Assembly: GCA_039195375.1 (NCBI GenBank)
Contig: JBCCVL010000004.1
Coordinates: forward strand, 8,173 to 72,172
Origin: Actinomycetota bacterium
Lineage (GTDB): Bacteria; Actinomycetota; Acidimicrobiia; Acidimicrobiales; SZUA-35
DNA length: 64,000 nucleotides
Direction of reading: 5' to 3'
Shown: one piece after another, positions 37,165 through 54,271 of the stretch
How positions within the stretch are numbered: the first letter of the stretch is position 1
How the letters are laid out: each line of letters starts with the position of its first letter
Program-made: the position numbers and the translations under genes
The notes under the pieces: model-generated
What the model was told of the DNA's origin: nothing
Databases searched by the model: none
Seen by the model: the letters and a program-made list of their open reading frames with translations, nothing else

Positions 37165-37324
37165 ACCGGTTGGACCTGCGTGGAACCGACGTTCCAGACC
37201 CGTCGGCCCGGGCCATCGCCGAGACGCCAGGCGCCGCAACGGCCACGAGCAGGCTGAGAACCAGCTGAGACGCCGGGTCATGGCCTCAGGCTGCTCTCAG
37301 CCGCAGCGTGGTCTCCTGCGCCGT

Positions 37325-38770
37325 ATGAGCAGCACACGGAACCTCCGAGTCCTCCCCGCCGTGATCGTGACCTCGCTGGTCGTCGCCGCCTGCGGGGCGG
37401 CGGGGTCGTCGGCGGACGACGCCGTACCGTCAACCGTCGACCGCCAGGTCGAGGGGGCCGGTGCCGGCGATCCGGGCGGTCCCGACGGACAGACCGACAC
37501 CGGCGATCCAGGCGACCTCGACCCGGCCGACCTCGACCCGGCCGACCTCGACACCGCCATGAGTCGCATCGCCGTCGCCTACGACCGGATCGACGGTGCC
37601 TGGACGGGCTTCGTCCCGAACGAGCACCCGGTCGTGCTCGCCTGGAAGGCCCCCGATGGCACCCTGTTGTCCGCCATCACCATCAACCACCCCGACCCTG
37701 GCGCCATCGGGTCGGCGACCCCGGTCGAGGTCGACGGGTTCACCCCCGGTACGGTCCACCGGATCGACGACGTCGGCGCGGGCGCCGCCGAACGTCTCGA
37801 CGGGATCGACACGTTCGACTTCGGGACCGAGATCGGCGGTGTCGACTCGTTCGTGCAGGTGGCCGGCGGCCCGGACGCCTTCTTCGACCCGACCACCGTC
37901 GACTACGCCAGCACGCTGCTGCACGAGCTGTTCCACCGCTACCAGTTCCAGTCGTTCGCCGCCGGCGACGGGCCCCAGGATGTCGAGGGATACGACTACC
38001 GGGCCTCGAACCTGGAGCTGGCGGCGCTGGAGGAACGGGCGCTGTCGGCCGCACTGGCTGCTGCGGGTGACGGCGACGCCGATCGGCGGGACGAGGCCGC
38101 TCGCCGGTTCGTCGCCATCCGCCTGACCCGTCTGGACGCCGACGAGCGGGTCCGGCTCGACGAGTCGCAGGAGGCGCTGGAGGGCACGGCGAGGTTCCTC
38201 GAGCACCGGCTCGGCCGGACCGACGACGCCTACACCTATCACGACGGCAACTTCGCCGCCGAGCTCAGAACCGACCCGACGACCGGACCGGTCAAGGAGC
38301 ACTATGGGTTCGGTCGCTGGTATGCGACCGGCGCCGCCGTGGTCCACCTGGCCGAGTCGGCCGGGGCCGACGACGTCGCCGCCCGGGTCGAGGACGGGGC
38401 CAGCCCGGCCGAGGTGCTCCGCCAGGCGCTCGGGCTCGACGGCGCCCCCGACGCCACGATCGCCGAGCTGGTGGCCGACGCCCGCCTGGCCTACGACCCC
38501 GACGGCGAGCTGCCGGACCTGGCGGTGGAGGCCGCCGCCACCGCCGAGGACGAGGGTCCGGTCTTCGGCGGGGACGGGAACGGCGACGGTGACAGCGACT
38601 CCCGCGGCGAGAGCGACGTCGACGGCGTCGAGACCGACGGCGATGGGGACGGGATGGCGATCACCGACGAGGAGCTTGCCTGTCTCGACGACTTCGGCGT
38701 CGAGTTGGAGCCGGACGACGACGGCTTCGTCGAGATCCCCGATGATGCCGTCGAGGCCTGCTTCGCTTGA
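37325..38770 (+). CDS. Secreted lipoprotein with an HExxH motif (putative metallopeptidase) and an acidic Cys-containing tail
   Basis: Lipobox SLVVAAC. LLHELFHRYQF. The tail is GDGNGDGDSDSRGESDVDG...ELACLDD...VEACFA. Confidence 0.6.
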   Translation: MSSTRNLRVLPAVIVTSLVVAACGAAGSSADDAVPSTVDRQVEGAGAGDPGGPDGQTDTGDPGDLDPADLDPADLDTAMSRIAVAYDRIDGAWTGFVPNEHPVVLAWKAPDGTLLSAITINHPDPGAIGSATPVEVDGFTPGTVHRIDDVGAGAAERLDGIDTFDFGTEIGGVDSFVQVAGGPDAFFDPTTVDYASTLLHELFHRYQFQSFAAGDGPQDVEGYDYRASNLELAALEERALSAALAAAGDGDADRRDEAARRFVAIRLTRLDADERVRLDESQEALEGTARFLEHRLGRTDDAYTYHDGNFAAELRTDPTTGPVKEHYGFGRWYATGAAVVHLAESAGADDVAARVEDGASPAEVLRQALGLDGAPDATIAELVADARLAYDPDGELPDLAVEAAATAEDEGPVFGGDGNGDGDSDSRGESDVDGVETDGDGDGMAITDEELACLDDFGVELEPDDDGFVEIPDDAVEACFA

Positions 38771-38865: not shown

Positions 38866-40287
38866 GTGAGCAAGCGGTACGCACAGGTCCTGGTCTTCGT
38901 CACCTCGGGGGCGGTGCTGGTCCTGGAGATCCTGGCCGGCCGGTTGATGGCCCCCTACGTCGGCGTCTCCCTCGAGACCTTCACCGGGATCATCGGCACG
39001 ATCCTCGCCGGCATCGCCCTCGGCGCCGCCGTCGGCGGGAGCCTGGCCGACCGCCACGACCCCAACAAGCTGATCGGCCCGGCGCTCATGCTCGGGGGGA
39101 TCCTCGCCTGGATCTCGATCCCGGTGGTGACGGTGCTCGGGCCCGGGCTCGGCAACGCGGTCCCCGCCATCATCCTCCTCGCCTTCTTCGGCTTCTTCCC
39201 CTCGGCCCTCGTGCTGAGCGCCATCAGCCCGATGGTGGCCAAACTGCGGCTGCAGAGTCTGGAGGAGACCGGCGAAGTCGTCGGTGGCCTGTCGGCCGCC
39301 GGCACCTTCGGCGCCCTGTTCGGCACGTTCTTCACCGGCTTCGTCCTCGTGTCGGCCGCGCCGACCCGCCCGGTCGTCATCGTGGTCGGCATGGCGTTGC
39401 TGGTCTGGGGGGCGGCGTTCCACCTGCGCCGCGGGTTCGACCTCAGCGCCCGCTACGGCCTCGGCGGCATGGCCGCCCTGTTCCTGGCGCTGGTCGCCGT
39501 CGATCCCTGCGAGTTCGAGTCGGCCTACGCCTGCGGCCGGGTCGTCGCCGACGAGACCGACGAGTCGATCCGGTTCCTCCATCTCGACACCCTGCGCCAC
39601 GGCGCCGTCGACCTCGACGATCCGACCCACCTCGAGTTCCGCTACATCAAGCTGATCGGCGACGTGATCGACGCCATGCCGGACGGCCCCATCGACAGCC
39701 TGCACGTCGGCGGCGGTGCCTTCTCCCTCCCGGCCTACATCAACGCAACCAGACCCGGCTCGACCAACCTGGTTTCGGAGATCGATCCGCTGCTCGTCGA
39801 CGTCGGCCGCGATGAGCTCGGCCTCGTCACCGGCGACGACCTCGAGATCATCACCGGCGATGCCCGTCTCGCCATCCCCGACCTCGACGACGACGCCTAC
39901 GACCTCATCATCGGCGACGTCTACGGCGGACTGGCCGTCCCCTGGCACCTGACGACCACCGAGTTCATCGCCGAGCTCGACCGGGTCCTCCGGCCCGGTG
40001 GGATCTACGTCATGAACGCGATCGACGGCGATGAGAACCGATTCGTCGAGGCCCAGTTGGCCACCCTGGCGGAGCACTTCGAGCACCGGACGGTGATCGT
40101 CCCGCCCGAGTGGCCGACCGTCCGCCCCGCCAACCAGATCCTGATCGCCTCACACGAGCCGCTCCCCGCGATCGTCGTCGATGCCGACGACGGTTCGCTC
40201 ATCGACGACGTGGTGGCGTTCACCGGCGATGCCCCGGTCCTGCGCGACGACTTCGCCCCCGTCGAGCAGCTCGCCGCCAACCTCTAG
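38866..40287 (+). CDS. Fused polytopic membrane / spermidine-synthase-like (class I methyltransferase-fold) protein
   Basis: About 7 N-terminal TM segments, then a polyamine aminopropyltransferase-like region (HVGGGAFSLPAY, DLIIGDVYGG). Confidence 0.7.
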   Translation: MSKRYAQVLVFVTSGAVLVLEILAGRLMAPYVGVSLETFTGIIGTILAGIALGAAVGGSLADRHDPNKLIGPALMLGGILAWISIPVVTVLGPGLGNAVPAIILLAFFGFFPSALVLSAISPMVAKLRLQSLEETGEVVGGLSAAGTFGALFGTFFTGFVLVSAAPTRPVVIVVGMALLVWGAAFHLRRGFDLSARYGLGGMAALFLALVAVDPCEFESAYACGRVVADETDESIRFLHLDTLRHGAVDLDDPTHLEFRYIKLIGDVIDAMPDGPIDSLHVGGGAFSLPAYINATRPGSTNLVSEIDPLLVDVGRDELGLVTGDDLEIITGDARLAIPDLDDDAYDLIIGDVYGGLAVPWHLTTTEFIAELDRVLRPGGIYVMNAIDGDENRFVEAQLATLAEHFEHRTVIVPPEWPTVRPANQILIASHEPLPAIVVDADDGSLIDDVVAFTGDAPVLRDDFAPVEQLAANL

Positions 40288-40442: not shown

Positions 40443-43400
40443 GTGCATCGAGCCGACAAGCGTGGAGGCGCGCCAATCGATGCTCCGTCGCGCCCACGAA
40501 CGTTGGCTGTTCTCGCCCTTGGAGTCGGCGCCTGCTACCTGTGGTGGCGGACCACCACGCTCGGCTCCGGCTCCCAGCTGGCCATCGCCGTGCCGGTGCT
40601 CGTGCTGGAGTTCTGGGCCTACGTCGAGCTGCTCCTGCTGACGCTCCAGTCCTGGCGCCTTCCACCGGCCACCGCCCGAAGCCGGAGCGGACGACCGGAC
40701 GGCACCGTCGACATCGTTGTCATCGCCGCCGGCGCCGACCCGGACGACCTGGAACGTACGCTGATCTCGTGCCGGGCGGTCCGGGGCCGCGACCGCATCA
40801 TCGTCGTCGACGACGAGCGGCGGATCCGTCACCGCGCCCTCGCCACCGACGCCGGCGCCTCGTACCGGATCGACCGAAGGGCCCTCTCCGCCCCCGGACT
40901 GGCCGCTCACCGGAACACCACCGCTGCGCTGTACCTGTGGCTGATGGCGGGGCAGCTCCCCACCGCCGATCTGCTCGAGGTCGCCGGCCCCCGCTTCGTC
41001 GAACGCGATCTGGCCGTGTGCCAGCTCGCCATCCGCCTGCTGAACCAGGAGGACCTGGCCCACCTCGGGCGCGACGCCGACGACGATGCCCTCGTCAACA
41101 ACGTGGTCGGCCCCGGCCTCTCCCGCTGGGGTGCGGGACCGTGGATCGGCCCAGCCTCGGTCGTTCGGCGCCGGGCCATCGAAGCGATCGGCGGATTCGA
41201 CCGTCACGTCCCGATCGACCGCCTCGGCGCCAGGCTCCACGGGGCCGGCTGGACGACGGCGTTCGAGCGACGCCAGCTCGTGGCCGCCACCGCTCCCGAG
41301 TCGATCGACCTGTACCTGGCCAAGCGCCGACGGGACGGCGGGGCCGCGCTCTCGGTCCTGCTCTCGCCCGATGGCCCCCTGAACCCTCGGCACGCCATGA
41401 CCGTCGGCCAGCGGGTGGCCCACCTCGCCGCCGCCGCTCGGCACGCCACGAGCCTCCGCCTCCTCGGCCTGGCCACCGCCGCGGTGGCCGTCGTGCTCAG
41501 CGGCGCGTTCCCGGCCGAGACGCCGGCCTTTGCGCTGCTCGTCTCCTGGGCGGCCGTCACCGCCCTGTCGTCGGCGGCCAAGCGAGCCCTGGCCCGGGGC
41601 ACGATGGGCTACGGCGATTGGCTCCGGCAGGGCTGGAGGGTCCTCGGGGCCGACGTCGCCGCCGCCGTCGATGCGGCAACCAAGCGGGTCGGGACGACCG
41701 TCGTCGACGTCGAACCGGACCGGGCCACCGGCGGGTGGCGGTCGTTGCTACACCTGCCGCTGGTCCAGATCGTCGTGCTGACGGTCGACGCCGCCCTGCT
41801 CGTCCGGGCCGCCAGCCTGCTCGATCGCGACCTGCTGCCAGCCTTCACCGGCGCCCAGCGGGTGGTCACCATCGGCTTCGCCATCGCCCTGCTGGTCCCG
41901 ATCGTCGACATGCTGCAGGTCATCGTGGTCCGTCAGCAGCAGCGGACGAGCTACCGGATCCAGGCCGAGCTCGACGCCACGGTCGACGGCACCCCGGCCC
42001 GCACCGTCGACATCACCCCGGAGGGTGCCGGCGTGCTGCTCGCCGCCGAGCCCGCGATCGGCTCCACCGTGTCGCTCGAGATCTCGCTGCCCGGCGCCGA
42101 TGGCGTCATCCGCCGGATCGTGGCCACCGCCGTCACCCGCGCCGCAAGACCGGAGGGCACCGACCGGTGGCGGGCCGGGTTCGAGCTGACCCAGATGGCG
42201 GCCCCGGCCAGGCAGGCGTTGGTTGCGTTCTGCGCCGAGCTGGAGTCGGACGACATCGACGAGGACCAGGCCACGGCCCTCGATCCCGTCGCGGCCCAGG
42301 AGCTGCGTCGCCGCCGGTCGCTCCGCCGGATCACCCTCGGTGCCGGCGTTGCCGGCCTGGCGACGATGGTCTTCGGCCCGACCGTCGCCTCCGCCTCGAC
42401 CACCACCCCCCATCTCGTCGAGTCCGTCTGCGTCGTCGACCCGGACGGCGGTCCCGTCCCCGAGGTCGGGATCAGCCGCCTGACCGGCGACGTCGCCGAC
42501 GTCCTCGGCGCCACGACCCTGACCGGCTGCCTCGATGTCGGCGCCGTCGAGACCACCACCGGGTTCACGATCGACCACCGGGGCCTGGTCCACGAGCTCC
42601 AGCCGGCCGACTACCGCACGACGGAGGCCGTGGTCACGCTGCGCCGCTGGGCGGTCCGGGTCTACGACCTCGATGCGACTCCCCGTGGCGACGTCGAGGT
42701 CCGGTACTTCAGCGACCGCTGGTTGGCCACGGCGCCGCCGACCGCCGTTGACGAGGGCCACCGGTTCGATGCGCCACCGGTCGACGGCGGCGCACTCTCG
42801 GTCGAGGTCACACTCGACGGGTCCCGCCTGGTCCGGGCCTTCGGTGCCGACGGTGTGATCGTGCTGTCGCGGGTCCGGCTGGAGCCCGAGGTCGACGAGG
42901 CCGGTCAGCCGGTGACCACCTGGCTCGACCGCGGTCGTGGCTGGGAGCCGGCGGGCGACGGCATGGAGTTGGTGCCGGGCCGGATCGTGGTCCGGACCGG
43001 TGACGGCACCATCCTGCGCCTCGACGTGCCCGAGGCGTCCGAGCTGCGGCTGCCGGCCGGTGACATCGTGCCCGTCGAGGTCGAGCTGCCCGAGCTGCCG
43101 GTCGACGAGCAACCCCAGCAACCGGCCGACGGCGAGGTGCCGGCCGACGACCCGGACGGCGGTCCGCTCGACGACCCGATCGAGGGAACCACGTCGACCT
43201 CGGTCGTCGACGAGGACACCCCGGCCTCGACCGCAGTGCCGACCGACGACGGTGACGTCTCGACATCGGAGCCGGCGTCCGAGCCAGGCGACGCCGTCGA
43301 TCCCGGCTCCACCTCGACGGCACCGCCGTCGGCCGAGCCGACGCCGACCACGGTCCCGTCCACCACCTCACCGACCCCCTCGCCGTCCTCGACCGCACCG

Positions 43401-43508
43401 ACGACGGCGCCGCCAACGGACGTATCGTCCTCGACGACGGCGACGACCGGTGGGGCCGAGACGTCGTCGACCGCCACCGGCGGTGATCCCGGAGGCGGCG
43501 GTCCATGA
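40443..43508 (+). CDS. BcsA-like GT2-family membrane protein with a PilZ domain and a roughly 430-aa extracytoplasmic S/T/P-tailed C-terminus; catalytic motifs look degenerate
   Basis: SD GAGGAG (40428-40433) before GTG 40443. Two TM segments, then a GT2-like region (VDIVVIAAG..IIVVDDERR, GPASVVRRRAIEAIGGF). PilZ: RQQQR, 21 aa, DITPEG. A further TM segment (ITLGAGVAGLATMVFG) is followed by the C-terminal region. Confidence 0.7.
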   Translation: MHRADKRGGAPIDAPSRPRTLAVLALGVGACYLWWRTTTLGSGSQLAIAVPVLVLEFWAYVELLLLTLQSWRLPPATARSRSGRPDGTVDIVVIAAGADPDDLERTLISCRAVRGRDRIIVVDDERRIRHRALATDAGASYRIDRRALSAPGLAAHRNTTAALYLWLMAGQLPTADLLEVAGPRFVERDLAVCQLAIRLLNQEDLAHLGRDADDDALVNNVVGPGLSRWGAGPWIGPASVVRRRAIEAIGGFDRHVPIDRLGARLHGAGWTTAFERRQLVAATAPESIDLYLAKRRRDGGAALSVLLSPDGPLNPRHAMTVGQRVAHLAAAARHATSLRLLGLATAAVAVVLSGAFPAETPAFALLVSWAAVTALSSAAKRALARGTMGYGDWLRQGWRVLGADVAAAVDAATKRVGTTVVDVEPDRATGGWRSLLHLPLVQIVVLTVDAALLVRAASLLDRDLLPAFTGAQRVVTIGFAIALLVPIVDMLQVIVVRQQQRTSYRIQAELDATVDGTPARTVDITPEGAGVLLAAEPAIGSTVSLEISLPGADGVIRRIVATAVTRAARPEGTDRWRAGFELTQMAAPARQALVAFCAELESDDIDEDQATALDPVAAQELRRRRSLRRITLGAGVAGLATMVFGPTVASASTTTPHLVESVCVVDPDGGPVPEVGISRLTGDVADVLGATTLTGCLDVGAVETTTGFTIDHRGLVHELQPADYRTTEAVVTLRRWAVRVYDLDATPRGDVEVRYFSDRWLATAPPTAVDEGHRFDAPPVDGGALSVEVTLDGSRLVRAFGADGVIVLSRVRLEPEVDEAGQPVTTWLDRGRGWEPAGDGMELVPGRIVVRTGDGTILRLDVPEASELRLPAGDIVPVEVELPELPVDEQPQQPADGEVPADDPDGGPLDDPIEGTTSTSVVDEDTPASTAVPTDDGDVSTSEPASEPGDAVDPGSTSTAPPSAEPTPTTVPSTTSPTPSPSSTAPTTAPPTDVSSSTTATTGGAETSSTATGGDPGGGGP

Positions 43509-44086
43509 GCGTCCGCCGACTGCTGTTCAGCGTCCTCGGTGCTGCCATCGTGCTCGGCGCCGCCGGGTTGCTGACCCTGCGTGCCGTGACCACGTCGAGC
43601 GCCCGACTCAGCGCCTCGACCTCGGGGTCGGGCACGTTCGAGGCCGGCACCGTCGACCTCGCGCAGCCGGAGTCGATCGTCAACCTGCTGTTCGACGCAG
43701 ACGGCCTCTACCCCGGGGTCGTGATCCCGTCGTGTCTGGTGATCGGCTACGACGGCAGTCTCGACGCCGGCGTCCGCCTGCACGCAGCCAACGCCGGGGG
43801 CGACGGGCTGGAGGACCACGTCGACCTGCGGCTGTGGCTCCGGCGCTCCGGCGACTGCCCGGACGACGCAGGCCAGACCGCCGCCGACCGGGGACCGCCG
43901 ACCTTCGACGGACTCCTCGGCGACCTCTGGCGCACCCACCCCGACTACGACCGTGGCCTGATCCTCATCGATCAGGCCACAGCCGGCGATCGCCTGGTAC
44001 TCGACGCCGAGGTGGAGCTGCGCCACGACCCCGACGCCCAGGGTCGGACGACCGAGTTCACCATCACCCTCGAGGCCAGGCCATGA
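43505..44086 (+). CDS. TasA/camelysin-like protein 1 with a SipW-type signal peptide
   Basis: ATGA overlap with the upstream gene. Signal anchor plus ...SGSGTFEAGTVDL..., a YPG strand, and a C-terminal EFTITLEA. Two Cys. Confidence 0.65.
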   Translation: MSVRRLLFSVLGAAIVLGAAGLLTLRAVTTSSARLSASTSGSGTFEAGTVDLAQPESIVNLLFDADGLYPGVVIPSCLVIGYDGSLDAGVRLHAANAGGDGLEDHVDLRLWLRRSGDCPDDAGQTAADRGPPTFDGLLGDLWRTHPDYDRGLILIDQATAGDRLVLDAEVELRHDPDAQGRTTEFTITLEARP

Positions 44087-47000
44087 GGTGGCTCACTGGC
44101 ATCCCGCTCGATCGGGTCCGTCGCGCCGCAGCGAGACCGGACCAGCTGGCGCGCCTGGTCGCCGGCTTCGTCGCCTACCTCTACCTCGCCGTCGTGTTGT
44201 TGCTCGGCGCATGGCTGGTGGTCATCAGCCTGACGACCGGCTGGCGGCCGGTGGTGATCACCGGTGGCTCGATGCTGCCGACGCTTCGGGTCGGCGACGT
44301 CCTCCTGGTCGAGGACCACCCGGACGGGCTCCTCGGCCAGCGCTCGGTCATCACCTTCGAGCCGACCAGGGGCGATGGGGCGATCACCCACCGCATCCAC
44401 GAGGTGTTGCCCGAGTCCCAGACCTACCTCACCAAGGGCGACGCCAACGCCGACGTCGACAGCGATCCGGTCAGCCCGTCGCAGGTGCTCGGGGTCGGAC
44501 GGCTGGTCATCCCGCTGCTCGGCCTGCCCGTCATCTGGGGGCTGAACGGCGACTGGCCGGCTCTGGCCGCCATCGGTGTGCTCTCGATCGGTGCCGTCGT
44601 CATCGTGGTGTCCAACGCCGTCGGTGACCGGTCGAGCAACCGGTCCGGGTCGGGGCGGACCTCGGAGATGGCGAACCGGGGGATCCGCCGCGTCCGGTTC
44701 CTGGCCGGCCTCATGATCGTCAGTGGCCTGTACCTCGACGGCTCCAGCATCGAGGAGGTCGGCTGGGGGCCCGGCCGCAACCAGGTGGTGGCCCTCACCC
44801 TCGCCGTGCTGATCGCCGTCAACCTGATCTCGACCACCGCCTCCAGCCGGGGTCGCCACCTCGGTCGTGATGGCCCGCCCGACTGGCTCGTCCTGGCCGA
44901 GCTCGGCGCCGACACCGTCCTCGCCGGCGTCCTGATCGCCCTCACCGGCGGCTCGGGCATCGCCTGGGCCTTCATCGCCCTGCCGATCGTCGAGGCCGCC
45001 GTGCGGTTCCGACTGGTTGGCGCACTCCTCCACTGGGTCCTGATGACGCTGCTCACCGTCGGGGCCCGCTTGTTCGCGCTCGACCGCGGCGGCGTGCCGC
45101 TGTCGGAGATCATCAACGAGCTGGAGCAGTTGCTCGACCAGCTCGGGATCCTCCTGCTGCTGGTCATCCCCGGCGCCTACCTGACCGAGCAGCTCGTCAC
45201 CGACGTGATCCGCCAGGATCGGGCCACCGCGGTCGCCATCGAGCGGGCCCGGCTGCTCGAGAAGGTGGCCGAGACCGGCTACGAACTGAACCGGATCGGC
45301 AACGAGCTGTTCCAGACCCTCACCAGGGCCGTGACGTCGCTCGGGTTCGACCTCGGCGACGCTCATCTGCTGCTACCGGACGGGCGCTGGAAGGCGCTGG
45401 CTGCGTCACCCATCGAGCGGGATCGGGCGTTGCCGGAACCCGGCGAGGCCGGGAGCGGTCTCCGCACGGACGACCTCGGCATGAACGAGGTCCTCGTCGA
45501 CCACGACGATCCCGAGTTGTCCGAGGTCCTCAGCCTGCAGGCCCACGACCTGGAGATGCTGGCCCGGCTGACCGTGTCGACCGAGGAGGGGCGCCACGTC
45601 GTCGTCCGGGCCGCCAACCTGACCGGTTCCGGCCTCCGGGCCGGCAGCATCGATGCGCTCCGCCTCCTGACCGGCCAGGCCGCGGTGGCGATGCAGAACG
45701 AGCAGCTCGTCGACGAGCTGCAGGGCGTCCAGGAGGAGCTGGCCCAGCAGGCGTTGCACGACGCGCTGACCGGGCTGCCGAACCGGGCGCAGTTCCTCGA
45801 TCGGCTCGAGCGGGGCCTGGCGATGGCAACCGACCCCGAGCGGCGTCATGTCGTGATGTTCATGGACCTCAACGGGTTCAAGGCGATCAACGACTCGCTC
45901 GGTCACGATGCCGGCGATGCGCTGCTCATCGGGGTGGCCGGCCGGCTCACGTCTGCGGTCGCCGACGACGGCCTGGTCGCCCGGCTCGGCGGCGACGAGT
46001 TCACCGTGCTGTTGGAGCCGGTGGCCGACATCAACCGGGCCATGGCGGTGGCCCAACGCATCCACGATGCGGTGGCCGAACCGTTCCAACTCGGCGACGA
46101 GCGGGCCGAGGTCAGCGGCAGCATCGGGCTGGCCCCGGCCGAGCTCGGGCTCGGCGGGAGTGAGATCCTGCGCCGGGCCGACGTGGCCATGTATGCCGCG
46201 AAGTCGTCGAGGGCAACGCCCCGCATCACGATCTACCATGCCTCGCTCGACGGGCAGGACCAGCGGCGTGGTCGGCTCAGCGCCGAGTTCGTCAAGGCGC
46301 TCGAAGCCGGTGAGCTGCACCTCGTCTACCAGCCCCTCGTCGACCGCGACGGCGACATCCGTGGCGTCGAGGCGCTCCTGCGCTGGACCCACCGCGAGAT
46401 GGGGCCCGTCAGCACCGCCACCATCCTCGAACTGGCCGAGGCCGCCGACCGGGTCGACGAGCTGGCCGCCTTCATCTTCGGCACCGCGACGGCCAGCATC
46501 GCCGGGCTCGGTATCCCCCGCCACGTCGACTTCACCCTGGCGGTCAACGTCACCCCGACCGAGTTGGGCTCCCCGAACCTGGTCGAGTTGGTTCGCCAGT
46601 CGCTGGCCGACAGCCGTCTCGGAGCCGAACGGCTGATCATCGAGCTCAACGAGCGGGTGGTGGCCGACGGCGAGGGCTCGCTCGACAACATCCACCGGGT
46701 CGTCGCCATGGGGGTCCGGCTCGCCCTCGACGACTTCGGCGAGGGACGTACCTCACTCGGGCACCTCCGTGGCCTGCCGATCAGCCAGCTCAAGCTCGAC
46801 CTCGGCCTGGTGCAGCAGGCGGCCGAGTCCGACTCGGATCGCATCATCCTCGACTCGATGGTTGGCCTGGCCCACGACCTGCAGTTCGAGGTCGTAGCCG
46901 AGGGCATCGAGACCGAGAAGCAGCTGGAGGTCGTGCTCGGCGCCGGCGCTGATCTCCTCCAGGGGTACGGTCTCTACCGGCCGATGGAGCTCGATCGGCT

Positions 47001-47331
47001 CCGTCGGGTGCTCGGCGAGTTCGACCTGACCGGGCCGGTGACCCGGGCACTTCCCTTGCGTCCGCCAACGGGCCCGGGCCCGATCTCGGCGACGCGGCCG
47101 CCCCCGATGCCGACGCCGATCGTCGTCGACGAACCGGTCGCCCCGGTCGAACCGGCCATGCCCGAGGCCCCGACCAGACCGCCGGCCCGGGGCCCGGATC
47201 CGCCGGTTGCGATGTTGGCCGGCTCGCCCGGTGATGTCGGACCGCCGATCGATGATCCGCCGGCCGATCGGCGGTCGGTTCCGGCACCGCCGGCGCCCCC
47301 GACCCCGCCGAGCAGACGGGGGGTTGGCTGA
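44083..47331 (+). CDS. SipW-type (S26B) signal peptidase I fused to a polytopic membrane domain, a GGDEF domain and an EAL domain
   Basis: ATGA overlap. Peptidase: ITGGSMLPT, AITHRIHEV, TKGDANADVDSD. At least 6 further TM segments. GGDEF: NGFKAINDSLGHDAGD...RLGGDEFTV (about 45988-46002). EAL: YQPLV...EALLRW (46369), DDFGEGRTSLGHL, LKLD, VAEGIET, QGY. Pro-rich tail. Confidence 0.85.
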   Translation: MRWLTGIPLDRVRRAAARPDQLARLVAGFVAYLYLAVVLLLGAWLVVISLTTGWRPVVITGGSMLPTLRVGDVLLVEDHPDGLLGQRSVITFEPTRGDGAITHRIHEVLPESQTYLTKGDANADVDSDPVSPSQVLGVGRLVIPLLGLPVIWGLNGDWPALAAIGVLSIGAVVIVVSNAVGDRSSNRSGSGRTSEMANRGIRRVRFLAGLMIVSGLYLDGSSIEEVGWGPGRNQVVALTLAVLIAVNLISTTASSRGRHLGRDGPPDWLVLAELGADTVLAGVLIALTGGSGIAWAFIALPIVEAAVRFRLVGALLHWVLMTLLTVGARLFALDRGGVPLSEIINELEQLLDQLGILLLLVIPGAYLTEQLVTDVIRQDRATAVAIERARLLEKVAETGYELNRIGNELFQTLTRAVTSLGFDLGDAHLLLPDGRWKALAASPIERDRALPEPGEAGSGLRTDDLGMNEVLVDHDDPELSEVLSLQAHDLEMLARLTVSTEEGRHVVVRAANLTGSGLRAGSIDALRLLTGQAAVAMQNEQLVDELQGVQEELAQQALHDALTGLPNRAQFLDRLERGLAMATDPERRHVVMFMDLNGFKAINDSLGHDAGDALLIGVAGRLTSAVADDGLVARLGGDEFTVLLEPVADINRAMAVAQRIHDAVAEPFQLGDERAEVSGSIGLAPAELGLGGSEILRRADVAMYAAKSSRATPRITIYHASLDGQDQRRGRLSAEFVKALEAGELHLVYQPLVDRDGDIRGVEALLRWTHREMGPVSTATILELAEAADRVDELAAFIFGTATASIAGLGIPRHVDFTLAVNVTPTELGSPNLVELVRQSLADSRLGAERLIIELNERVVADGEGSLDNIHRVVAMGVRLALDDFGEGRTSLGHLRGLPISQLKLDLGLVQQAAESDSDRIILDSMVGLAHDLQFEVVAEGIETEKQLEVVLGAGADLLQGYGLYRPMELDRLRRVLGEFDLTGPVTRALPLRPPTGPGPISATRPPPMPTPIVVDEPVAPVEPAMPEAPTRPPARGPDPPVAMLAGSPGDVGPPIDDPPADRRSVPAPPAPPTPPSRRGVG

Positions 47332-47942
47332 TGGCCCGATCCCTGCTCGACCTGCACGACGCCGACGACGGCGGCACCATCGATGATCGCGAGAATCGGG
47401 TTGGCCGACTGGCCGCCGCTGCCTTGGCGGCGGCGGTTTCGGCGTTGATCATCGGTTCGCTCGTGGTGACGTTCAGCGACCGGGCGCTCGGGCCGGACGG
47501 CACGGTCGCGGCGGCCACGGTCACGTCGGGCACGATCTCGCTGGTCGACGACGACCAGGGGCGGTCGTTGTTCGACCTCGCCGACATGGCCCCCGGGCGT
47601 CCCGTCGTCCATTGCATCGAGCTGGTCTACGACGGCACGATCGTGCCCGTCGACCTGGCCATGCGGGCCGAGGCGTCCGGCGACCTGACCCGCTTCCTCG
47701 ACGTCGCCGTCGAGTCGGGCAAGGGCGGCGGCTTCGATGACTGCAGCGGTTTCGAGTCGACCGGCCAGGTCTACGGCGGGACGCTGGCCGAGCTCGCCGC
47801 CTCGGGGTGGCTCGATCTCGGGACGCTGGTCAATGCGGGCCAGCGCAGTAGCTACCGGATCTCGTTCGAGCTCCAGGATCGCCAGGAGGCACTCGGCCGC
47901 GCCGCCAACGCCTCGTTCGTCTGGGAGGTGACGCCGACATGA
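47331..47942 (+). CDS. TasA/camelysin-like protein 2
   Basis: TGATG junction. ...LVVTFSDRAL...ATVTSGTISL..., MAPGRPVVHCIELVYDG, and a C-terminal SFVWEVTP. Two Cys. Confidence 0.6.
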   Translation: MARSLLDLHDADDGGTIDDRENRVGRLAAAALAAAVSALIIGSLVVTFSDRALGPDGTVAAATVTSGTISLVDDDQGRSLFDLADMAPGRPVVHCIELVYDGTIVPVDLAMRAEASGDLTRFLDVAVESGKGGGFDDCSGFESTGQVYGGTLAELAASGWLDLGTLVNAGQRSSYRISFELQDRQEALGRAANASFVWEVTPT

Positions 47943-48721
47943 CCGAAACGACCGACACCAGCGGCAGGGGGCCGGACCCCGGGCCGATACGCGACGGGCG
48001 GGACACCCCCTCGGGCTCCGGCCCGACAGCCGGTCCGACCGCCGACCCGACGGCCGCGGCCGGCGATCGTCGACGCGTTGCGCTCCTCGTCGCCGCCTCG
48101 GTGGTGGTGGCGCTGCTCGGCGTGTCCGTCCCCGTCGGTGTCGCCCTGGTGAGCCGCAGCTCGTCGGCAAGCTTCGCCGATCGGGAGGTCCTGGCCACGA
48201 ACCGCCTCGGCGCTGCCACCCTCGACCTCCAGGTCGACGGCGGGTCGTCGAACTCCCCGCTCGTCGAGCTCGGCGAGGGTCCGCAGGCGATCGACGAGGA
48301 CACGAGCAACGCGGTGTTCGTCGCCACCAACCTCGCGCCCGGCGATCGTGTGTCCGGCCACCTGGAGATGACCAACCGGGGTGACCTCCCGTTGCGGTAC
48401 GGCCTCCAGGCGGTCAGTTCCGACGGGATGCTCGCCGAGTGGCTGCGGTTCGAGGCGTGGGTCGGGAGCGGAATCTGCTCGCCGGACCAGGCCGGACCCC
48501 GGTTGGTGAGCGAGGCCAGGGTCTCCGCCGAGCCGGCGGTCCTGCTGCCGCTCGCCACACCGGCGGGAGCGACCCCGCTGAACGTGTTGGAGCCCGGCGA
48601 GTCGACCCTGTGGTGCCTCGGCGCCACGCTGTTGCTGGAGACCCCGAACGAGGCCCAGGGTCAGGCGCTCGACGTGACCCTCTTCGTGCCGATCGAGCAG
48701 GTCGTCGAGGTCGGGCCGTGA
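47939..48721 (+). CDS. TasA/camelysin-like protein 3
   Basis: ATGA overlap. ...SSSASFADREVLATNRLGAATLDL..., NLAPGDRVSGHLEMTNRGDLPLRY. Two Cys. Confidence 0.65.
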   Translation: MTETTDTSGRGPDPGPIRDGRDTPSGSGPTAGPTADPTAAAGDRRRVALLVAASVVVALLGVSVPVGVALVSRSSSASFADREVLATNRLGAATLDLQVDGGSSNSPLVELGEGPQAIDEDTSNAVFVATNLAPGDRVSGHLEMTNRGDLPLRYGLQAVSSDGMLAEWLRFEAWVGSGICSPDQAGPRLVSEARVSAEPAVLLPLATPAGATPLNVLEPGESTLWCLGATLLLETPNEAQGQALDVTLFVPIEQVVEVGP

Positions 48722-51700
48722 CCGGCGCCGACGAGCTCGCCTCGCCTCCACCGGTGTCTCGCCGAGCCCGGATCACCGGGATCCTGGTCACGACCACATC
48801 GCTTGTCGTCCTCGGGCTGGTCGGGGTGGTCGTCGGTGGGCTCCTGGCCGGCTATCGCCCGGTCGTGATCCTGACCGGCAGCATGGGCGACACCGCTCCT
48901 CCCGGGTCGCTGGTCGTCGCCGCACCGGTCGACGGCGACGCCGTGGCCACCGGTGACATCCTCGTGATGCGCCGACCGGACGCAGCGACCGTCACCCACC
49001 GGGTGATCGAGATCGAATCCGCCGGCGCCGACCGTTTCGCCATCACCCGGGGCGACGCCAACGAGGCACCGGACGCCGCCCCGTACCCCTTGACCGGTGA
49101 CCAGCTGGTCGGCCGGTTCGCCGTCCCACGACTGGGCGAGCTGGCCCTCACCGTGTTCCAGCCCGGTCTGGTCTTCGCCCTGGTCGGCCTGGCCACGTTC
49201 GTGTTCGCCCTTGGGGCGCTGCGTCGGATCTGGGCCGGACCGGATCTGCCCGCCGACCTCGACCCCGACGTCGACCCCGACCCTGACGTCGATCCCGAGT
49301 ACGAGCACGGCGCCGGCGTCGACCCCGGGCTGCACCACGACGAGACCGGGTCCGGTACCCACGATCGGGGTGGGGCGGCCCCCGCGCCCCGGCGGGGGCG
49401 TCGCAAGCTTGCCCTGTTCGTCGTGCCGGTCGTGCTCGCCGGCAGCGCCGGGGTGGCGTGGGCGCTGGCCCAGGCCACCGCCCCGGTCGACGCCAACACC
49501 TTCGGCACCGCCCAGTGCTTCGACCCCGAGCTCCACTCGGTCCAGCAGGGCGAGACCGTCCATTCGATCAGCGGCACGATCAACGTGCCGATCGCGGCCG
49601 TCGACCCGACCACGTCGTTTGTCGTCGCATCGCTCCGCAGCAACGCCTCCGACCCGGCCGACTCGATGGTCCAGGTCGAGCTCGGCGGCGGGGGCACGAC
49701 CGTCGACCTGGTCAGGGCCACCGATGCCGGCTCGCCTCCGCCGGTGGTCGTGAACTGGTCGGTCGTCTCCTACGCCTGCGGCGTCACCGTGCAGCGGGGC
49801 TCGCTCAACGGCGATGGCACCGCCCAGCTCGACACGGCGATCACCGCCGTCGACCCGGGCTCGTCGTTCGTGCTGGTCAGCTCCGCCCCCGACTCGACCG
49901 CCTCGAGCTACGCCGGCAACGACCTGTTCGTCGGCGAGTTGGCCGACCCGTCGACGGTCCGGATCCGGGCCACCGGCTCGACGTTCCCGACCGGCCAGAG
50001 CTTCGCCTGGCAGGTGGTCGAGTTCGACGACTCCGCCGATGCCACCGTTCAGACGATCTCCGCCACCCTCGGCCTCGGCGTCACCTCGACGACGGCGACG
50101 ATCCCGAGCCCGGCCGACCCGGACACCACGCTGCTGCTGGCATCCGCCCTCTCGGCCGCTTCGGGGGCCGACATCGGCGAGCGGCTGATCCGGACCCATC
50201 TGGTCGACGCCACGACGGTGGCCGTCGACCGGGCCGTCGGCGGCGACCCCGTCGAGGTCCGCATCCAGGTCGTGACTCTGGCCGACGGCTCGATCGTGCG
50301 CCACGGGACCGTCGACCTGGCCGCGGCCCAACCGGCGGCCACCGTCACGATCGACGCCGTCGACCCCGGCCGGGCCGTCGCCTTCTCGACCGTGGCCCAG
50401 CCCGGCGTCCCAGCCGGCGGCCTCAGCGACCACGTGGCCGACGACGTGCCCGGCGAGGCCAGCGCCACCTTCGACGTGACCGACCCGACCACCGTGTCGA
50501 TCACCCGCGATGCGTCGTCCTCCAACGCCTCCTTCGGCTGGCAGGTGGTCGAGTGGGCCGGGCCCCGCTGGTGGGACAGCGCCTACAGCTTCCGGCAGCG
50601 CATCGACGTCGTCACCTCGGCAACCGCTGCTCCCGACGCCTACACCGTGCCTCTCGTCCTCGACCACGCCTCGCTGGTCGGCTCGGGCCTGGCCCAGGGG
50701 AGCGGTGACGACCTGCGGGTCCTGCGGTGGGACGGCACGGCCTGGGCCGAGCTCGACCGCGTGCTCGAGGACGGCTCCGCCTGGAACCGGGCCGACACCG
50801 AGCTCTGGTTCCGCACCACCGACCCGATCGCCGCCGACACCACCAACACCTACTGGCTGTACTTCGGCAACGGGGCCGCCGGCACCGCCCCCGCCGACCC
50901 CGAGGCGGTGTTCCTGCTCACGGAGGACTTCGACGCCGGGACGCTCGGCGACTTCGAGGACCGGACCGGCGGCACCGGCTGGTATCAAGCCATGCCGTGG
51001 ACCCGCCGGATCCCGGTCACCGTCGCCGCCGGCACCGCCAGCGCTGACCTCACCGACTTCCCGCTGCTCGTCTCGCTGACCTCGGCCGACCTTGCGGCCA
51101 ACGCCAACGGCGACGGGAGCGACATCCGCTTCACGTCCGCAGACGGGGTCACCCCCCTCGCCCACGAGATCGAGTCGTACGATGACGGCACCGGGGCTCT
51201 CGCCGCCTGGGTTCGGGTGCCGACGGTCAGCGCCGGTTCGGCCACGACGGTGTACCTCTACTACGGCGCGAGCGACGCCCCGGCCCAGCAGGACGTCCGG
51301 GGCACCTGGCCAGAGGAGATCCGGGCCGCCTGGCACCTGGCTCGCGACCCGTCCGGCTCTGCCCCCCAGCTCGACGACTCGACGCCGTTCAACAACGACG
51401 GCCTCAGTTCCGGGGCCATGACCTCCGGTGACCTCGTCAACGGGGCGGCCGGACCGGCGGTCGACCTCGACGGCGGCGACGACCACCTCCGAGCCGCGCC
51501 GTTCGACGTCGCCGGTGCCGGCGGGCTCACCGTCTCGGCCCTGGTCCGGCTCGACGCCCTGCCGGCCGGCGAAGGCCGGGTCGTGGCCAAGGCCGCCGAC
51601 GGCTCGACCAGGATCGTCGAATTGGCGATCACCGCCGCCGGCGATCTGGTCGGTCGGCTCTCGCTCGACGGGTCCGAATCCCAGCTCACCGCTGGCACGG

Positions 51701-52365
51701 TTTCGACCGGTGTGTGGCGCCACCTGGCCATGACCTGGGACGGCACGACCCAACGGCTGTTCGTCGACGGTGTCGAGGTCGGCTCACAGCCGGCCAGCGG
51801 GGCCATCGACGCCGCAGCCACGATGCCGATCACGATCGGTGACCTGGTCACCGGCGGCGGTGCGATCGACGGTGCCGTCGACGAGGTCCGGATCGAGACG
51901 GTGGCCCGGTCGGCTGCCTGGCTGGCCGCGACCCAGGCCAACCAGCGGACCCCCGGCTCGTTCCTGTCGATCGGCGCAACCGAGGGTGGCTCCTGGTTCG
52001 ACCAGGGCACCTGGTCGTACCGCAAGCCGATCCGGGTCGAATCGGACCTCATCACCGCCGACCAGTCGGCCTACCCGCTGCTGGTCCAGGTGACCGACGC
52101 CGAGCTGTCGGCCGCAGCCACCGTCAACGGTCGCGATCTCGTGTTCACCGCCGCCGACGGCACCACCAGGCTCGACCACACCGTCGAGTCGTGGGACCGG
52201 GGCTCGGGGGCGCTGACCGCCTGGGTGCTGCTGCCGACGCTGTCGTCGAGCACCGACACCGAGCTGTTCCTCTACTACGGGAACGCCTCCGCCGCAGCCC
52301 AGGAGGACCCCACCGCCGTGTTCGGGCCCGAGGCCGACCTGGTCCTCACCGGGGCCGACTCATGA
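48718..52365 (+). CDS. Second SipW-type signal peptidase fused, through an internal SipW-type signal peptide, to a large beta-sandwich / DUF2341 / LamG passenger
   Basis: GTGA overlap. Peptidase: LTGSMGDT, VTHRVIEI, TRGDANEAPD. TM2, a DP-repeat linker, then RRGRRKLALFVVPVVLAGSAGVAWALAQATAPVDANTFGTA. Three W-x-V-V-E repeats follow. Three DUF2341-like units (W.YR..I.V ... DIRF/DLVF ... LYYGN) flank a LamG-like block (VWRHLAMTWDG...LFVDG). Confidence 0.8.
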   Translation: MTGADELASPPPVSRRARITGILVTTTSLVVLGLVGVVVGGLLAGYRPVVILTGSMGDTAPPGSLVVAAPVDGDAVATGDILVMRRPDAATVTHRVIEIESAGADRFAITRGDANEAPDAAPYPLTGDQLVGRFAVPRLGELALTVFQPGLVFALVGLATFVFALGALRRIWAGPDLPADLDPDVDPDPDVDPEYEHGAGVDPGLHHDETGSGTHDRGGAAPAPRRGRRKLALFVVPVVLAGSAGVAWALAQATAPVDANTFGTAQCFDPELHSVQQGETVHSISGTINVPIAAVDPTTSFVVASLRSNASDPADSMVQVELGGGGTTVDLVRATDAGSPPPVVVNWSVVSYACGVTVQRGSLNGDGTAQLDTAITAVDPGSSFVLVSSAPDSTASSYAGNDLFVGELADPSTVRIRATGSTFPTGQSFAWQVVEFDDSADATVQTISATLGLGVTSTTATIPSPADPDTTLLLASALSAASGADIGERLIRTHLVDATTVAVDRAVGGDPVEVRIQVVTLADGSIVRHGTVDLAAAQPAATVTIDAVDPGRAVAFSTVAQPGVPAGGLSDHVADDVPGEASATFDVTDPTTVSITRDASSSNASFGWQVVEWAGPRWWDSAYSFRQRIDVVTSATAAPDAYTVPLVLDHASLVGSGLAQGSGDDLRVLRWDGTAWAELDRVLEDGSAWNRADTELWFRTTDPIAADTTNTYWLYFGNGAAGTAPADPEAVFLLTEDFDAGTLGDFEDRTGGTGWYQAMPWTRRIPVTVAAGTASADLTDFPLLVSLTSADLAANANGDGSDIRFTSADGVTPLAHEIESYDDGTGALAAWVRVPTVSAGSATTVYLYYGASDAPAQQDVRGTWPEEIRAAWHLARDPSGSAPQLDDSTPFNNDGLSSGAMTSGDLVNGAAGPAVDLDGGDDHLRAAPFDVAGAGGLTVSALVRLDALPAGEGRVVAKAADGSTRIVELAITAAGDLVGRLSLDGSESQLTAGTVSTGVWRHLAMTWDGTTQRLFVDGVEVGSQPASGAIDAAATMPITIGDLVTGGGAIDGAVDEVRIETVARSAAWLAATQANQRTPGSFLSIGATEGGSWFDQGTWSYRKPIRVESDLITADQSAYPLLVQVTDAELSAAATVNGRDLVFTAADGTTRLDHTVESWDRGSGALTAWVLLPTLSSSTDTELFLYYGNASAAAQEDPTAVFGPEADLVLTGADS

Positions 52366-52444: not shown

Positions 52445-53068
52445 ATGTCCACCTCCCCTCAGGCCCCCTCCAGGCGGGCGCCGGCTCGGCGCCGGGGCAA
52501 CGGTGCCCGCATGCTGGCCAGTGTCGCCGTGCTTGCCCTCGCCGGCGGTGTGTTCACCGTGTCGTCGCTCGCGTTGTTCACCGACTCCGAGGACGTGTCC
52601 GGCAACGCCTTCACCACCGGAACGGTCGACCTGACCGCCACCCCGGCCACCGCCGTGGTGACGGCGGCAAACATGGCTCCTGGTGACCAGGTGACCAATC
52701 CGCTCGACGTCGCCAACTCGGGCACGCTCGAGCTTCGTTACTCGATGGCGTCGGCCACCACCGAGGACGTCCTGGCGGCCGAGTTGGTGCTCACCGTCAA
52801 GGAGGGGGTCACCACGTGTGACGACTCGAACTGGAGCGCCGACGGGACCACCCTCTACTCGGGGCCGCTCGGCTCGACCGGAGGCACGCCCGTCATCGGC
52901 GACCCGACGCAGGGATCGCAGGCCGGTGATCGGGTGCTGGCCGCCGGGGCCGACGAGACGCTCTGCTTCAACGTGACGCTGCCCCTGTCGGCCGGGAGCA
53001 ACGCCGAGGGCCAGTCGACGTCGGCCACGTTCACCTTCGAAGGCGAGCAGACCGCCAACAACCCGTAG
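52445..53068 (+). CDS. TasA/camelysin-like protein 4 (the most canonical SipW-type signal)
   Basis: ...VSSLALFTDSEDVSGNAFTTGTVDL..., NMAPGDQVTNPLDVANSGTLELRY, and a C-terminal ATFTFEGEQ. Two Cys. Confidence 0.75.
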   Translation: MSTSPQAPSRRAPARRRGNGARMLASVAVLALAGGVFTVSSLALFTDSEDVSGNAFTTGTVDLTATPATAVVTAANMAPGDQVTNPLDVANSGTLELRYSMASATTEDVLAAELVLTVKEGVTTCDDSNWSADGTTLYSGPLGSTGGTPVIGDPTQGSQAGDRVLAAGADETLCFNVTLPLSAGSNAEGQSTSATFTFEGEQTANNP

Positions 53069-53125: not shown

Positions 53126-54271
53126 TCAGGGCCTGGCGTCGAAGGCGACCCGCTCGTCTGAGATCGCCCGCAGCTCCCGATGGTGCTCGGCCAGTTCGCC
53201 CATGGCGGCGGTGATGTCGTCGATCGTCGAGACCGTGTCGGCCACCTGACCGCCGATCCGGCGTAGCGTGTCGGCGATCTCGGTCCCACTGGCTGCGGAC
53301 TGGCGGGCCAGCTCCTGGACCTCGTTGGCGACCACGGCGAAACCTCGACCGGCCTCACCGGCCCTGGCCGCCTCGATGGTTGCATTGAGGGCCAACAGGT
53401 TGGTCTGGGCTGCGATCTCTTGGATGACATCGCTGGCGGCCATGATCCCGGTGCTGGTGGCTTCGAGCTCTCCGATGGCACCGGAGGCGGCCTGGGTCCG
53501 CTCGTTGACCCGGGACACGATCTCCTCGCCGGTCTGGGCGGCCTCGACCATCCGGTCCTGGAGGCGGATCCGCTCCTGGAGCTCGGCTGCGGCCAGGTCC
53601 AGGCGCTCCCGCTCCGCCTCCTCGGCCGCGGCCGCCGCTTCGGCCTCGGCCTGCCTGGCCTGCTCGTCGGCCAGCGACCTGGCGGCGGCGGCCTCGATCT
53701 CGGCCTCCCGTGCCTTCTCCAGCATCTCGGCTCGGGCGGCGGCCGATGCCTGCTCGTTGGCGACCGCCTCCTCGGCCATCTCCTCGAGCCGCCGTCGCTG
53801 CCAGGCGGCGACGAGGCTGATGAACGACACCAGCAGCCACGAGCTGGCGAACAGCGGGATCGCCTCGAGCAGCGGCTTGGTGAGGAGCTGGGGGACGAGC
53901 AGCGGGGCGGCGACACCACCGATGCAGGCGTACACGTGGTTGCGGGGCAGGACCATGCCAACCCAGAGCATCGTCAGGCCCATGCCGGCACCGAGTCCGG
54001 GGTCGGCGTCGGGGTTGAGGTACTGCACGACCGTGACCAGGGCGAACGCCAGCCACGCCTGGGCTGCTGCAATCCCGGTCGACACGGTCTGCCGTTCGGC
54101 CACCGCGAGCGACACGCCGACGGCGGCGATGATGCCGGCGACCCCGAGCGAGGCCGTTCTCGGATAGCCCTCGGTGCTCATCGAGCCGAGGGCGATGGCG
54201 ACCGCAGCCGCCATCCACGTTCGTGACAGGAACGAGGTCGACATGAGGAGGTCGTCTGATCGGTGCTCCAC
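53126..54271 (-). CDS. Polytopic membrane protein with a short methyl-accepting-chemotaxis-type signalling domain (no HAMP seen)
   Basis: About 6 N-terminal TM segments and an Ala/Glu coiled coil. MCP hairpin tip [40 protein letters not shown]. Start is GTG 54271 or ATG 54244. Confidence 0.7.

Follow-up and report, generated by a model that had tools for sequence, protein, structure and literature searches.

Can a signal peptidase serve as the input domain of an enzyme that turns over cyclic diguanylate (c-di-GMP)? The question is raised by one gene in a 64,000-nucleotide stretch of an Actinomycetota bacterium genome (GenBank assembly GCA_039195375.1, contig JBCCVL010000004.1, positions 8,173 to 72,172; GTDB order Acidimicrobiales, SZUA-35), hereafter the window, whose G+C content is ∼72%. 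The gene (44083..47331, + strand, as are all features below unless stated) joins an S26B signal peptidase of the SipW/Sec11 type to GGDEF and EAL domains and lies among genes for TasA-like matrix-fibre proteins. Its product can be regarded as a sensor-type c-di-GMP enzyme that has a signal peptidase for its putative input or, just as well, as a SipW permanently wired to a signalling output. The input domains known from c-di-GMP enzymes include dozens that bind ligands; our full-text literature searches found no description of a signal peptidase in that position, nor of a fusion of a SipW/S26 peptidase with GGDEF.

The first point to settle is whether the fusion is real. The reading frame is open from 42937, with the start at ATG 44083, a GAGG nine bases upstream of it and a TGA stop at 47329-47331, and the resulting open reading frame (ORF) specifies 1082 amino acids with no internal stop. 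From N- to C-terminus the product comprises a transmembrane (TM) helix, TM1, the peptidase, a second helix, TM2, a polytopic membrane module, a GAF-fold domain, GGDEF, EAL, and a Pro-rich tail. An earlier note on this DNA had proposed such a single-polypeptide fusion, and the proposal stands: hidden Markov models (HMMs) support S26B, GGDEF, and EAL within the one ORF, and every motif that the note quoted (GGSMLPT, THRIHEV, TKGDANADVDSD, GGDEF, EALLRW, DDFGEGR, LKLD, EGIET, and QGY) is found in the translation. The simplest rival is an assembly or sequencing artefact in which a frameshift error has joined adjacent genes for a SipW and a membrane GGDEF-EAL protein, and split genes do occur at a few related loci (L003, L031, L041, and L049). 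However, the interval in which the note had foreseen a possible frameshift or stop, between 44600 and 45300, contains neither. When one genome per GTDB species was scanned with the N-terminal alignment as query, 50 loci were recovered, and all five parts lie in a single ORF in 42 of these independent species assemblies, the remainder being interrupted by contig ends or apparent frameshifts. Moreover, no stand-alone membrane-GAF-GGDEF-EAL part with its own start was found apart from fragments at contig ends. On the strength of the single ORF in the window and in 42 of 50 species we reject the artefact, to which we give a negligible probability; the comparison of these sequences indicates that the fusion is a genuine single polypeptide conserved across Acidimicrobiales.

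The note had also failed to recognise the domain combination. That no description exists in the literature searched agrees with this, but the combination is not peculiar to the window and forms a family already present in public databases. Almost all of the 50 loci are labelled Acidimicrobiales or Acidimicrobiia, one of them 91% identical to the window and two from metagenome-assembled genomes (MAGs) of Ilumatobacter sp. (L033 and L035). With residues 1-548 as query, a word-indexed search through 5.8 billion proteins returned only 14 relatives, which, where a source is named, come from Actinomycetota, Acidimicrobiia or Acidimicrobiales MAGs; some are titled 'signal peptidase I'. An exhaustive HMM search of 1.84 billion cluster representatives gave ∼45 clusters (at 50% identity) that match peptidase and membrane module together, and only ordinary SipW-like peptidases ranked below them; the window's own protein is a singleton cluster. 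A tblastn search against plasmids yielded generic GGDEF-EAL matches only, none covering ≥ 80%. In these searches, and as far as the recovered sequences tell, the fusion family is confined to Acidimicrobiales/Acidimicrobiia. Its members carry the public labels 'signal peptidase I' or 'EAL domain-containing protein' (NCBI MDH5519346.1, 1021 amino acids, is a 'signal peptidase I'), names that hide the architecture of the fusion in databases.

Is the N-terminal part a true signal peptidase? It matches NCBIfam TIGR02228, 'signal peptidase I, archaeal/SipW type', over residues 33-150 with 55.5 bits (curated cut-off 51.85). Pfam Peptidase_S26 remains sub-threshold, at 17.8-21.4 bits against 22.9, so Pfam-based architecture listings would miss the fusion. 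The closest match of this domain in both sequence and fold is Sec11 (human SEC11A/C, PDB 7p2p/7p2q): the N-terminus aligns with the PDB sequences of SEC11A and SEC11C at E ∼1e-5, with the GSM, HR, and KGDaN boxes in register. Ser63 falls in the G-S-M box shared with SEC11A/C, H103-R104 aligns with the SEC11 'vHRv', a His base rather than the Lys of S26A LepB, and D120, N122, and D126 align with 'KGDNN..D'. Sec11 works with accessory membrane subunits, whereas the fusion has a covalently attached polytopic module. When residues 1-400 were modelled with AlphaFold2 (pLDDT ∼80 across the peptidase), Foldseek ranked SEC11C/A first (TMt 0.58), followed in third place by the Streptococcus pyogenes pseudo-peptidase SipA (4n31) and then by LepB/SpsB. 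Every sequence and fold feature of S26B that was tested is present in this peptidase.

Conservation was measured on an alignment of 43 sequences with 36-91% identity to the window. Ser63, Met64, His103, Arg104, Asp120, Asn122, and Asp126 are invariant in all 43, and the S26 domain is the best-conserved part of the fusion, with a mean pairwise identity of 0.56. The note's assignment of catalytic residues, which would have fallen had they failed to align, is thereby upheld, the register being kept in both the HMM and the PDB alignments.

The peptidase is flanked by anchors of the expected kind. TM1 (residues 30-48; 44170..44226) is a predicted N-in signal anchor with a Kyte-Doolittle value of 2.62, six K/R in the preceding 29 residues, and a model helix spanning 19-52. 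The extracytoplasmic catalytic domain (residues 53-155; 44239..44547), which holds Ser63, His103, Asp120, and Asp126 and is supported by TIGR02228, the SEC11A/C alignment and Foldseek, is followed by TM2 (residues 159-177; 44557..44613), the C-terminal anchor typical of SipW/Sec11, which would return the chain to the cytoplasm (Kyte-Doolittle 2.38; Arg-rich loop 178-203; model helix 158-185). The charge pattern around both helices fits the positive-inside rule, and hydropathy and charge together predict a positive N-terminus, TM1, an external peptidase, TM2, an Arg-rich cytoplasmic loop, a hydrophobic block at 204-372 and a soluble remainder. Hydropathy, charge distribution by the positive-inside rule and the AlphaFold models, all of them predictive, agree with the topology put forward earlier, in which the protease faces outwards and c-di-GMP is turned over in the cytoplasm.

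Residues 204-372 (44692..45198) form a family-specific polytopic membrane module, recognised by hydropathy, models, and invariant columns. Hydropathy and the positive-inside rule place six helices in it, while both AlphaFold models draw 292-335 as a single 44-residue helix; because the two counts differ, we describe the module as having 4-6 helices. Every topology of consistent parity would leave GAF-GGDEF-EAL in the cytoplasm, as GGDEF/EAL chemistry requires. The note had counted at least six TM segments followed by a cytoplasmic linker; the soluble part is indeed predicted to lie inside, and its picture is refined by a GAF-fold domain in the linker. Neither module nor linker has a Pfam family at E ≤ 10, and Foldseek gave no significant PDB match to the module (best ImcA, 8wcn, E 0.35). 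The second AlphaFold2 model, of residues 186-560, built on 27 sequences and reaching pLDDT 84.9, represents residues ∼395-548 (45265..45726) as a cytoplasmic GAF fold with long signalling helices on both sides. Foldseek matched this region with prob 1.0 to many phytochrome and cyanobacteriochrome GAF domains and with TMt 0.64-0.69 to the isolated GAFs 3w2z, 5m85, and 3p01; the linker/GAF region has no Pfam hit at E ≤ 10, and a linker profile finds nothing among PDB sequences.

The module and the GAF fold bring in a second rival, co-localisation without allostery, in which the peptidase is merely tethered to a c-di-GMP enzyme at the site of export and the cyclase/phosphodiesterase balance is set by a ligand of the module or of the GAF domain, not by peptidase occupancy. 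Conserved polar residues lie within the predicted helices (E273, D277, P301, E304, R308, H317, W318, D352, Q353, E369, and Q370), and the many invariant polar or charged ones, E273, D277, E304, H317, D352, and E369 among them, could bind a ligand of their own, as could the conserved LPxPGxxxSGLR loop of the GAF-fold domain; local c-di-GMP signalling by membrane GGDEF/EAL proteins is, besides, established. What this rival leaves unexplained is the tie between module and peptidase: among 158 retrieved proteins the module was never found without an S26 N-terminus, except in contig-end or partial fragments, and GGDEF occurred only alongside the module.

The GGDEF domain (residues 557-709; 45751..46209) is matched by Pfam PF00990 at E 6e-41 (140.3 bits vs 23.8) and the EAL domain (residues 736-967; 46288..46983), which has all metal-binding and catalytic residues, by PF00563 at E 3e-52 (177.7 bits vs 31.3). 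Both had been called intact beforehand, and conservation bears this out. The active-site GGDEF motif, intact in the window, is invariant in the 43 sequences, and the EAL residues are retained in 38-43 of them (E763 in 43; N822 in 40; E854, E857, K904, and Q960 in 42; DDFG in 41-42; E943 in 39; E940 in 38). No RxxD I-site is present: in the window, ADDG occupies positions -9 to -6 ahead of GGDEF, and the aligned relatives have none either. By contrast with these domains, the Pro-rich C-terminal tail (residues 976-1082; 47008..47328) is poorly conserved, with a mean pairwise identity of 0.18 and no invariant column. By motif and by model the predicted cytoplasmic part is an ordinary GAF-GGDEF-EAL tandem, and active-site conservation makes all three enzymatic domains look functional in this clade. 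The fusion shares the succession of input, signalling helix, GAF, GGDEF, and EAL, with intact motifs, with membrane sensor GGDEF-EAL proteins (NCBIfam DibA, PdeR, and DosP-like matches; phytochrome-GAF-linked cyclases, PDB 5lly), but those have ligand-binding inputs (CHASE, Cache, MASE, or PAS), whereas in the fusion the place of the input is taken by a protease domain whose active site is intact.

With a module that can bind c-di-GMP in the cytoplasm and a protease on the outer face, signalling could also run in the opposite direction. In Pseudomonas, c-di-GMP governs the LapA adhesin through control of a protease, and the LapD-LapG pair resembles the fusion in linking c-di-GMP inside to a protease that acts on a surface or biofilm protein outside. 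By analogy, c-di-GMP bound at the EAL/GGDEF site could alter the GAF domain and membrane module, switch the external peptidase, and so gate the release of TasA-like subunits; a weak match to NCBIfam LapD (NF045673, 119.8 bits against a cut-off of 1020) points the same way. However, LapD-type receptors have degenerate GGDEF and EAL domains, and LapD acts by sequestering a separate Cys protease, whereas the fusion carries a fused Ser/His signal peptidase and both of its c-di-GMP domains are intact (GGDEF invariant and EAL nearly so), for which reason we reject identity with a LapD-type receptor. The missing I-site counts against inside-out control as well, and GGDEF stays intact in relatives whose protease is dead (below), the opposite of what a protease output predicts. 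We regard this direction as unlikely.

Those relatives form four divergent lineages (P0041/P0163, P0042, P0045, and P0056) that keep the membrane module and GGDEF with a degenerate S26 domain. In P0041 (L051, 726-3608) GSM has become DAM, HR has become RR, and GDAN has become GDQP, a state confirmed by a second protein from another source that is 80% identical and has the same Ser-to-Ala and His-to-Arg changes. P0042 (L055, 3251-5647) has lost the His and the Asp of GDAN, and in P0045 the His is replaced by Asp. In P0056 (L052, 10001-12790), which is identical on three contigs from three sources, most of the domain is deleted, the EAL is partly degenerate (EAI, DAFG), and the gene adjoins trkH/trkA, the TasA context having been lost. 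It appears from these sequences that the S26 domain can persist as a non-catalytic module ahead of an intact cyclase.

The neighbourhoods of the distant relatives are equally informative. Both P0041, with a dead peptidase, and P0043, with an intact one, are followed directly by a TasA2-like gene whose start overlaps their stop, and lack all other genes of the cluster described below. Such a gene still follows immediately in the distant loci L051 and L056 and, as a weak match downstream of P0042, in L055. These neighbourhoods indicate that the minimal conserved unit is the fusion plus TasA2, and the retention of module, GGDEF, and TasA2-like neighbour in relatives without catalytic residues suggests that S26 acts as an input domain. 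Co-localisation without allostery gains from P0056, which has shed most of its S26 domain, but leaves open a question, namely what makes the pseudo-peptidase lineages retain a degenerate S26 instead of losing it; we consider it improbable.

The same lineages bear on a further rival, that the S26 domain of this very fusion is a non-catalytic binding or chaperone domain and that a second peptidase of the locus, SipW2, does all the cleavage. The precedent is SipA/LepA of S. pyogenes (PDB 4n31), a non-catalytic S26 fold that serves in pilus biogenesis and that P0041, P0163, P0042, and P0045 resemble. The Foldseek ranking of SipA, the existence of pseudo-peptidase relatives and the presence of SipW2 in the operon all speak for it. 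SipA differs from the fusion in lacking a signalling module, however, and the fusion keeps every catalytic residue: that Ser63, His103, Asp120, Asp126, and their boxes are invariant down to 36% identity argues for retained catalysis in the clade and makes this rival very improbable.

What would such a peptidase cut? As the earlier note had supposed, the neighbours are TasA-like, which HMM scans and the comparison of loci both support. The conserved order, on one strand and tightly packed, is TasA1, fusion, TasA2, TasA3, SipW2 fused to DUF2341-LamG, and TasA4; the locus counts that follow are lower bounds, many of the 50 loci ending at contig ends. TasA1 (43505..44086; 193 amino acids with an N-terminal signal peptide; upstream of the fusion at 46 loci) has a stop that overlaps the start of the fusion (ATGA), and the stop of the fusion overlaps the start of TasA2 (TGATG), an arrangement that indicates translational coupling of the fusion to both genes. 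TasA2 (47331..47942; 203 amino acids) is the most constant partner, present at 49 loci; a phmmer search with it against PDB gave only chance filamin matches. TasA3 (47939..48721; 260 amino acids; weak Pfam Peptidase_M73 match, E 7.6e-4) is divergent and was found at 22 loci, and TasA4 (52445..53068) at 39. TasA4 is the member with a recognised SipW-dependent signal peptide (TIGR04088 cognate_SipW, 29 bits vs 19) and a clear Peptidase_M73 domain (PF12389, 42.1 bits vs 22.5); TasA1-3 are its paralogues by phmmer, TasA1 also being linked to TasA2 in this way.

In the window and in the orthologues at L051 (3605-4237) and L056 (3461-4084), the hydrophobic segment of TasA2 is preceded by an unusual N-terminal extension, acidic and 25-45 residues long; this could be a cytoplasmic handle.

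SipW2 (48718..52365) was found at 41 loci and its DUF2341-LamG extension at 35. Its peptidase is 33% identical to that of the fusion with the same catalytic boxes, and the protein scores 61.1 bits with TIGR02228 (cut-off 51.85), E 1e-30 with DUF2341, and E 1e-23 with Laminin_G_3. Beyond S26 and its TM helix the chain reads 'LRRIW' and passes into a cytoplasmic loop of variable, acidic, low-complexity sequence. An RRRR n-region leads from there into a hydrophobic stretch that closes with GVAWAL[FY], and a TasA-type 'V.SN.F' start precedes the large extracellular DUF2341 and LamG part; this internal signal-peptide pattern is kept across the 32 loci inspected (e.g. L001, 14261-18208). The pattern suggests that SipW2 is fused to its own apparent substrate, with self- or trans-cleavage releasing the extracellular part. 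By analogy, the fusion might cleave itself after the first helix of its module, but no small-x-small or F[ST]D-type site occurs there, and we discard this as a low-probability option. N-terminal SipW-type S26B fusions to long extracellular regions (RCC1 repeats, LamG) recur among the best S26-only matches (e.g. P0146, 1203 amino acids, and P0157, 904 amino acids), and fusions of SipW to putative substrates may be a wider, little-noticed pattern.

The nearest known counterpart is the tapA-sipW-tasA operon of Bacillus subtilis. There, sipW likewise specifies an S26B Ser/His peptidase anchored by a TM helix at either end, and it lies between matrix-fibre genes of the TasA family. B. subtilis SipW removes the SipW-dependent signal peptides of its TasA-family neighbours, an operon logic that the fusion cluster shares: in the window, too, a SipW-type peptidase gene lies next to TasA/camelysin-family genes with a SipW-dependent signal peptide. 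The differences are considerable. SipW of B. subtilis has ∼190 amino acids and no signalling domain, whereas the C-terminal anchor of the fusion runs on into module, GAF, GGDEF, and EAL; and the operon in the window has two SipW paralogues and four TasA paralogues in a host from Acidimicrobiia, not Bacillota. The NCBIfam equivalog of Bacillus SipW (NF046067) is not among the families listed for the fusion, and SipW2 reaches only 41 bits against its cut-off of 190. According to the passage of PMC4238804 that cites Terra et al. (2012), B. subtilis SipW is bifunctional, having a role in surface-adhered biofilm formation separate from its peptidase activity.

Is there a receptor for the signal? 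Immediately upstream of TasA1 lies a BcsA-like gene (40443..43508; ORF open from 40110, the likely start being GTG 40443 with a GAGGAG ribosome-binding site before it). Pfam, phmmer, and an orthologue alignment describe its product as a membrane protein in which a GT2 domain has degenerated while the PilZ domain is intact, with one further TM helix and an extracellular Pro/Thr-rich C-terminus. It matches E. coli BcsA (7lby) by phmmer at E 9e-15 and Pfam PilZ (PF07238) at 30.2 bits against a gathering cut-off of 22.5, its GT2 and CelA matches being weak. Like the cellulose synthase BcsA it has a GT2 fold in the membrane and, after it, a PilZ domain containing RxxxR and DxSxxG, but it differs in having the extra TM helix, the extracellular C-terminal region, which is rich in Pro, Thr, and Ser, and no glycosyltransferase motifs. 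These are gone in all 20 orthologues, which come from loci within L001-L047: DxD reads MAGQ in the window or [DE]AGQ elsewhere, TED is not conserved, and QxxRW is lost. The PilZ motifs, in contrast, are kept in all 20, both the RxxxR type (the window has RQQQR, the orthologues RRxxxR or RxxxR) and D[ILV][TSA]xxGxG. We therefore reject an active cellulose-type synthase; the loss of one motif set and retention of the other is best read as a c-di-GMP receptor on a pseudo-glycosyltransferase scaffold. Within the locus, c-di-GMP is likely to be sensed by this protein, which probably acts as a receptor or scaffold rather than as a synthase.

From these elements we propose that the S26 domain has two roles, as a peptidase dedicated to the co-encoded TasA-like precursors (chiefly that of TasA2) and as the input domain of the c-di-GMP module. 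When a precursor signal peptide is engaged or cleaved in the membrane, this event would be relayed through the polytopic module, the signalling helix, and the GAF domain and would shift the balance between cyclase and phosphodiesterase, so that local c-di-GMP would report the export of fibre subunits; in the sub-clade of the window, the PilZ domain of the adjacent pseudo-glycosyltransferase would read this signal and coordinate matrix assembly. The outside-in direction is preferred because membrane module and S26 domain are strictly coupled, because the dead-peptidase lineages retain the domain and its TasA2 neighbour with GGDEF intact, and because the order helix-GAF-helix-GGDEF is typical of sensor cyclases. 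We put the chance that this scheme is correct at about even. The more specific idea, in which the flux or occupancy of fibre-subunit signal peptides is read by the very protease that cuts them and converted into a c-di-GMP output, the domain becoming a dead signal-peptide receptor in the offshoots, we hold more tentatively, as a possibility somewhat short of even.

Several points weigh against the proposal. The case for coupling between peptidase and c-di-GMP turnover is made entirely from architecture and conservation, and the membrane topology is a prediction for which hydropathy and AlphaFold disagree on the number of helices. The TasA-like proteins could in fact be processed by SipW2, which belongs to the same operon. 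Intact GGDEF and EAL tandems often run in one direction only, and that direction is not readable from sequence. Finally, the BcsA-like gene precedes the operon at 19 of the 50 loci, those of the sub-clade of the window, and in distant species unrelated housekeeping genes lie upstream of the cluster instead, so that its PilZ domain cannot be a universal read-out and we reject it as a universal partner.

Other genes flank the cluster. Directly upstream of the BcsA-like gene, 38866-40287 (+) encodes a fused MFS/spermidine synthase (NF037959, 309.6 bits); spermidine affects biofilm formation in B. subtilis, but the gene is linked to the cluster only in the window and at L001 and is therefore unlikely to belong to the system. 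On the other side, 53126-54271 (- strand), next to the downstream end of the cluster and convergent with it, specifies a protein in which Pfam MCPsignal recognises an MCP signalling domain (E 1.8e-25). The large neighbouring ORFs at 37280-38770, 54755-56875, and 57965-60421 have no Pfam family.

Taken across the loci compared, the finding appears to reach past an isolated fusion to a clade-wide family and its operon: a conserved and previously undescribed matrix-fibre cluster of Acidimicrobiales, organisms here known almost entirely from MAGs. The cluster combines four paralogues of TasA with two SipW peptidases, both of them fused, to which one sub-clade adds a pseudo-glycosyltransferase with a PilZ domain. 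Through the fusion, the export of fibres is probably tied to biofilm signalling. Should the balance between cyclase and phosphodiesterase be controlled by processing or occupancy, the fusion would provide a direct molecular link between protein export and second-messenger signalling in biofilms. It would then represent a new class of c-di-GMP input, 'secretion-load sensing', and a hard-wired form of the regulatory side role, so far unexplained, that SipW plays in B. subtilis, and would make a tractable system for studying how peptidases of the SipW type combine regulation with cleavage.

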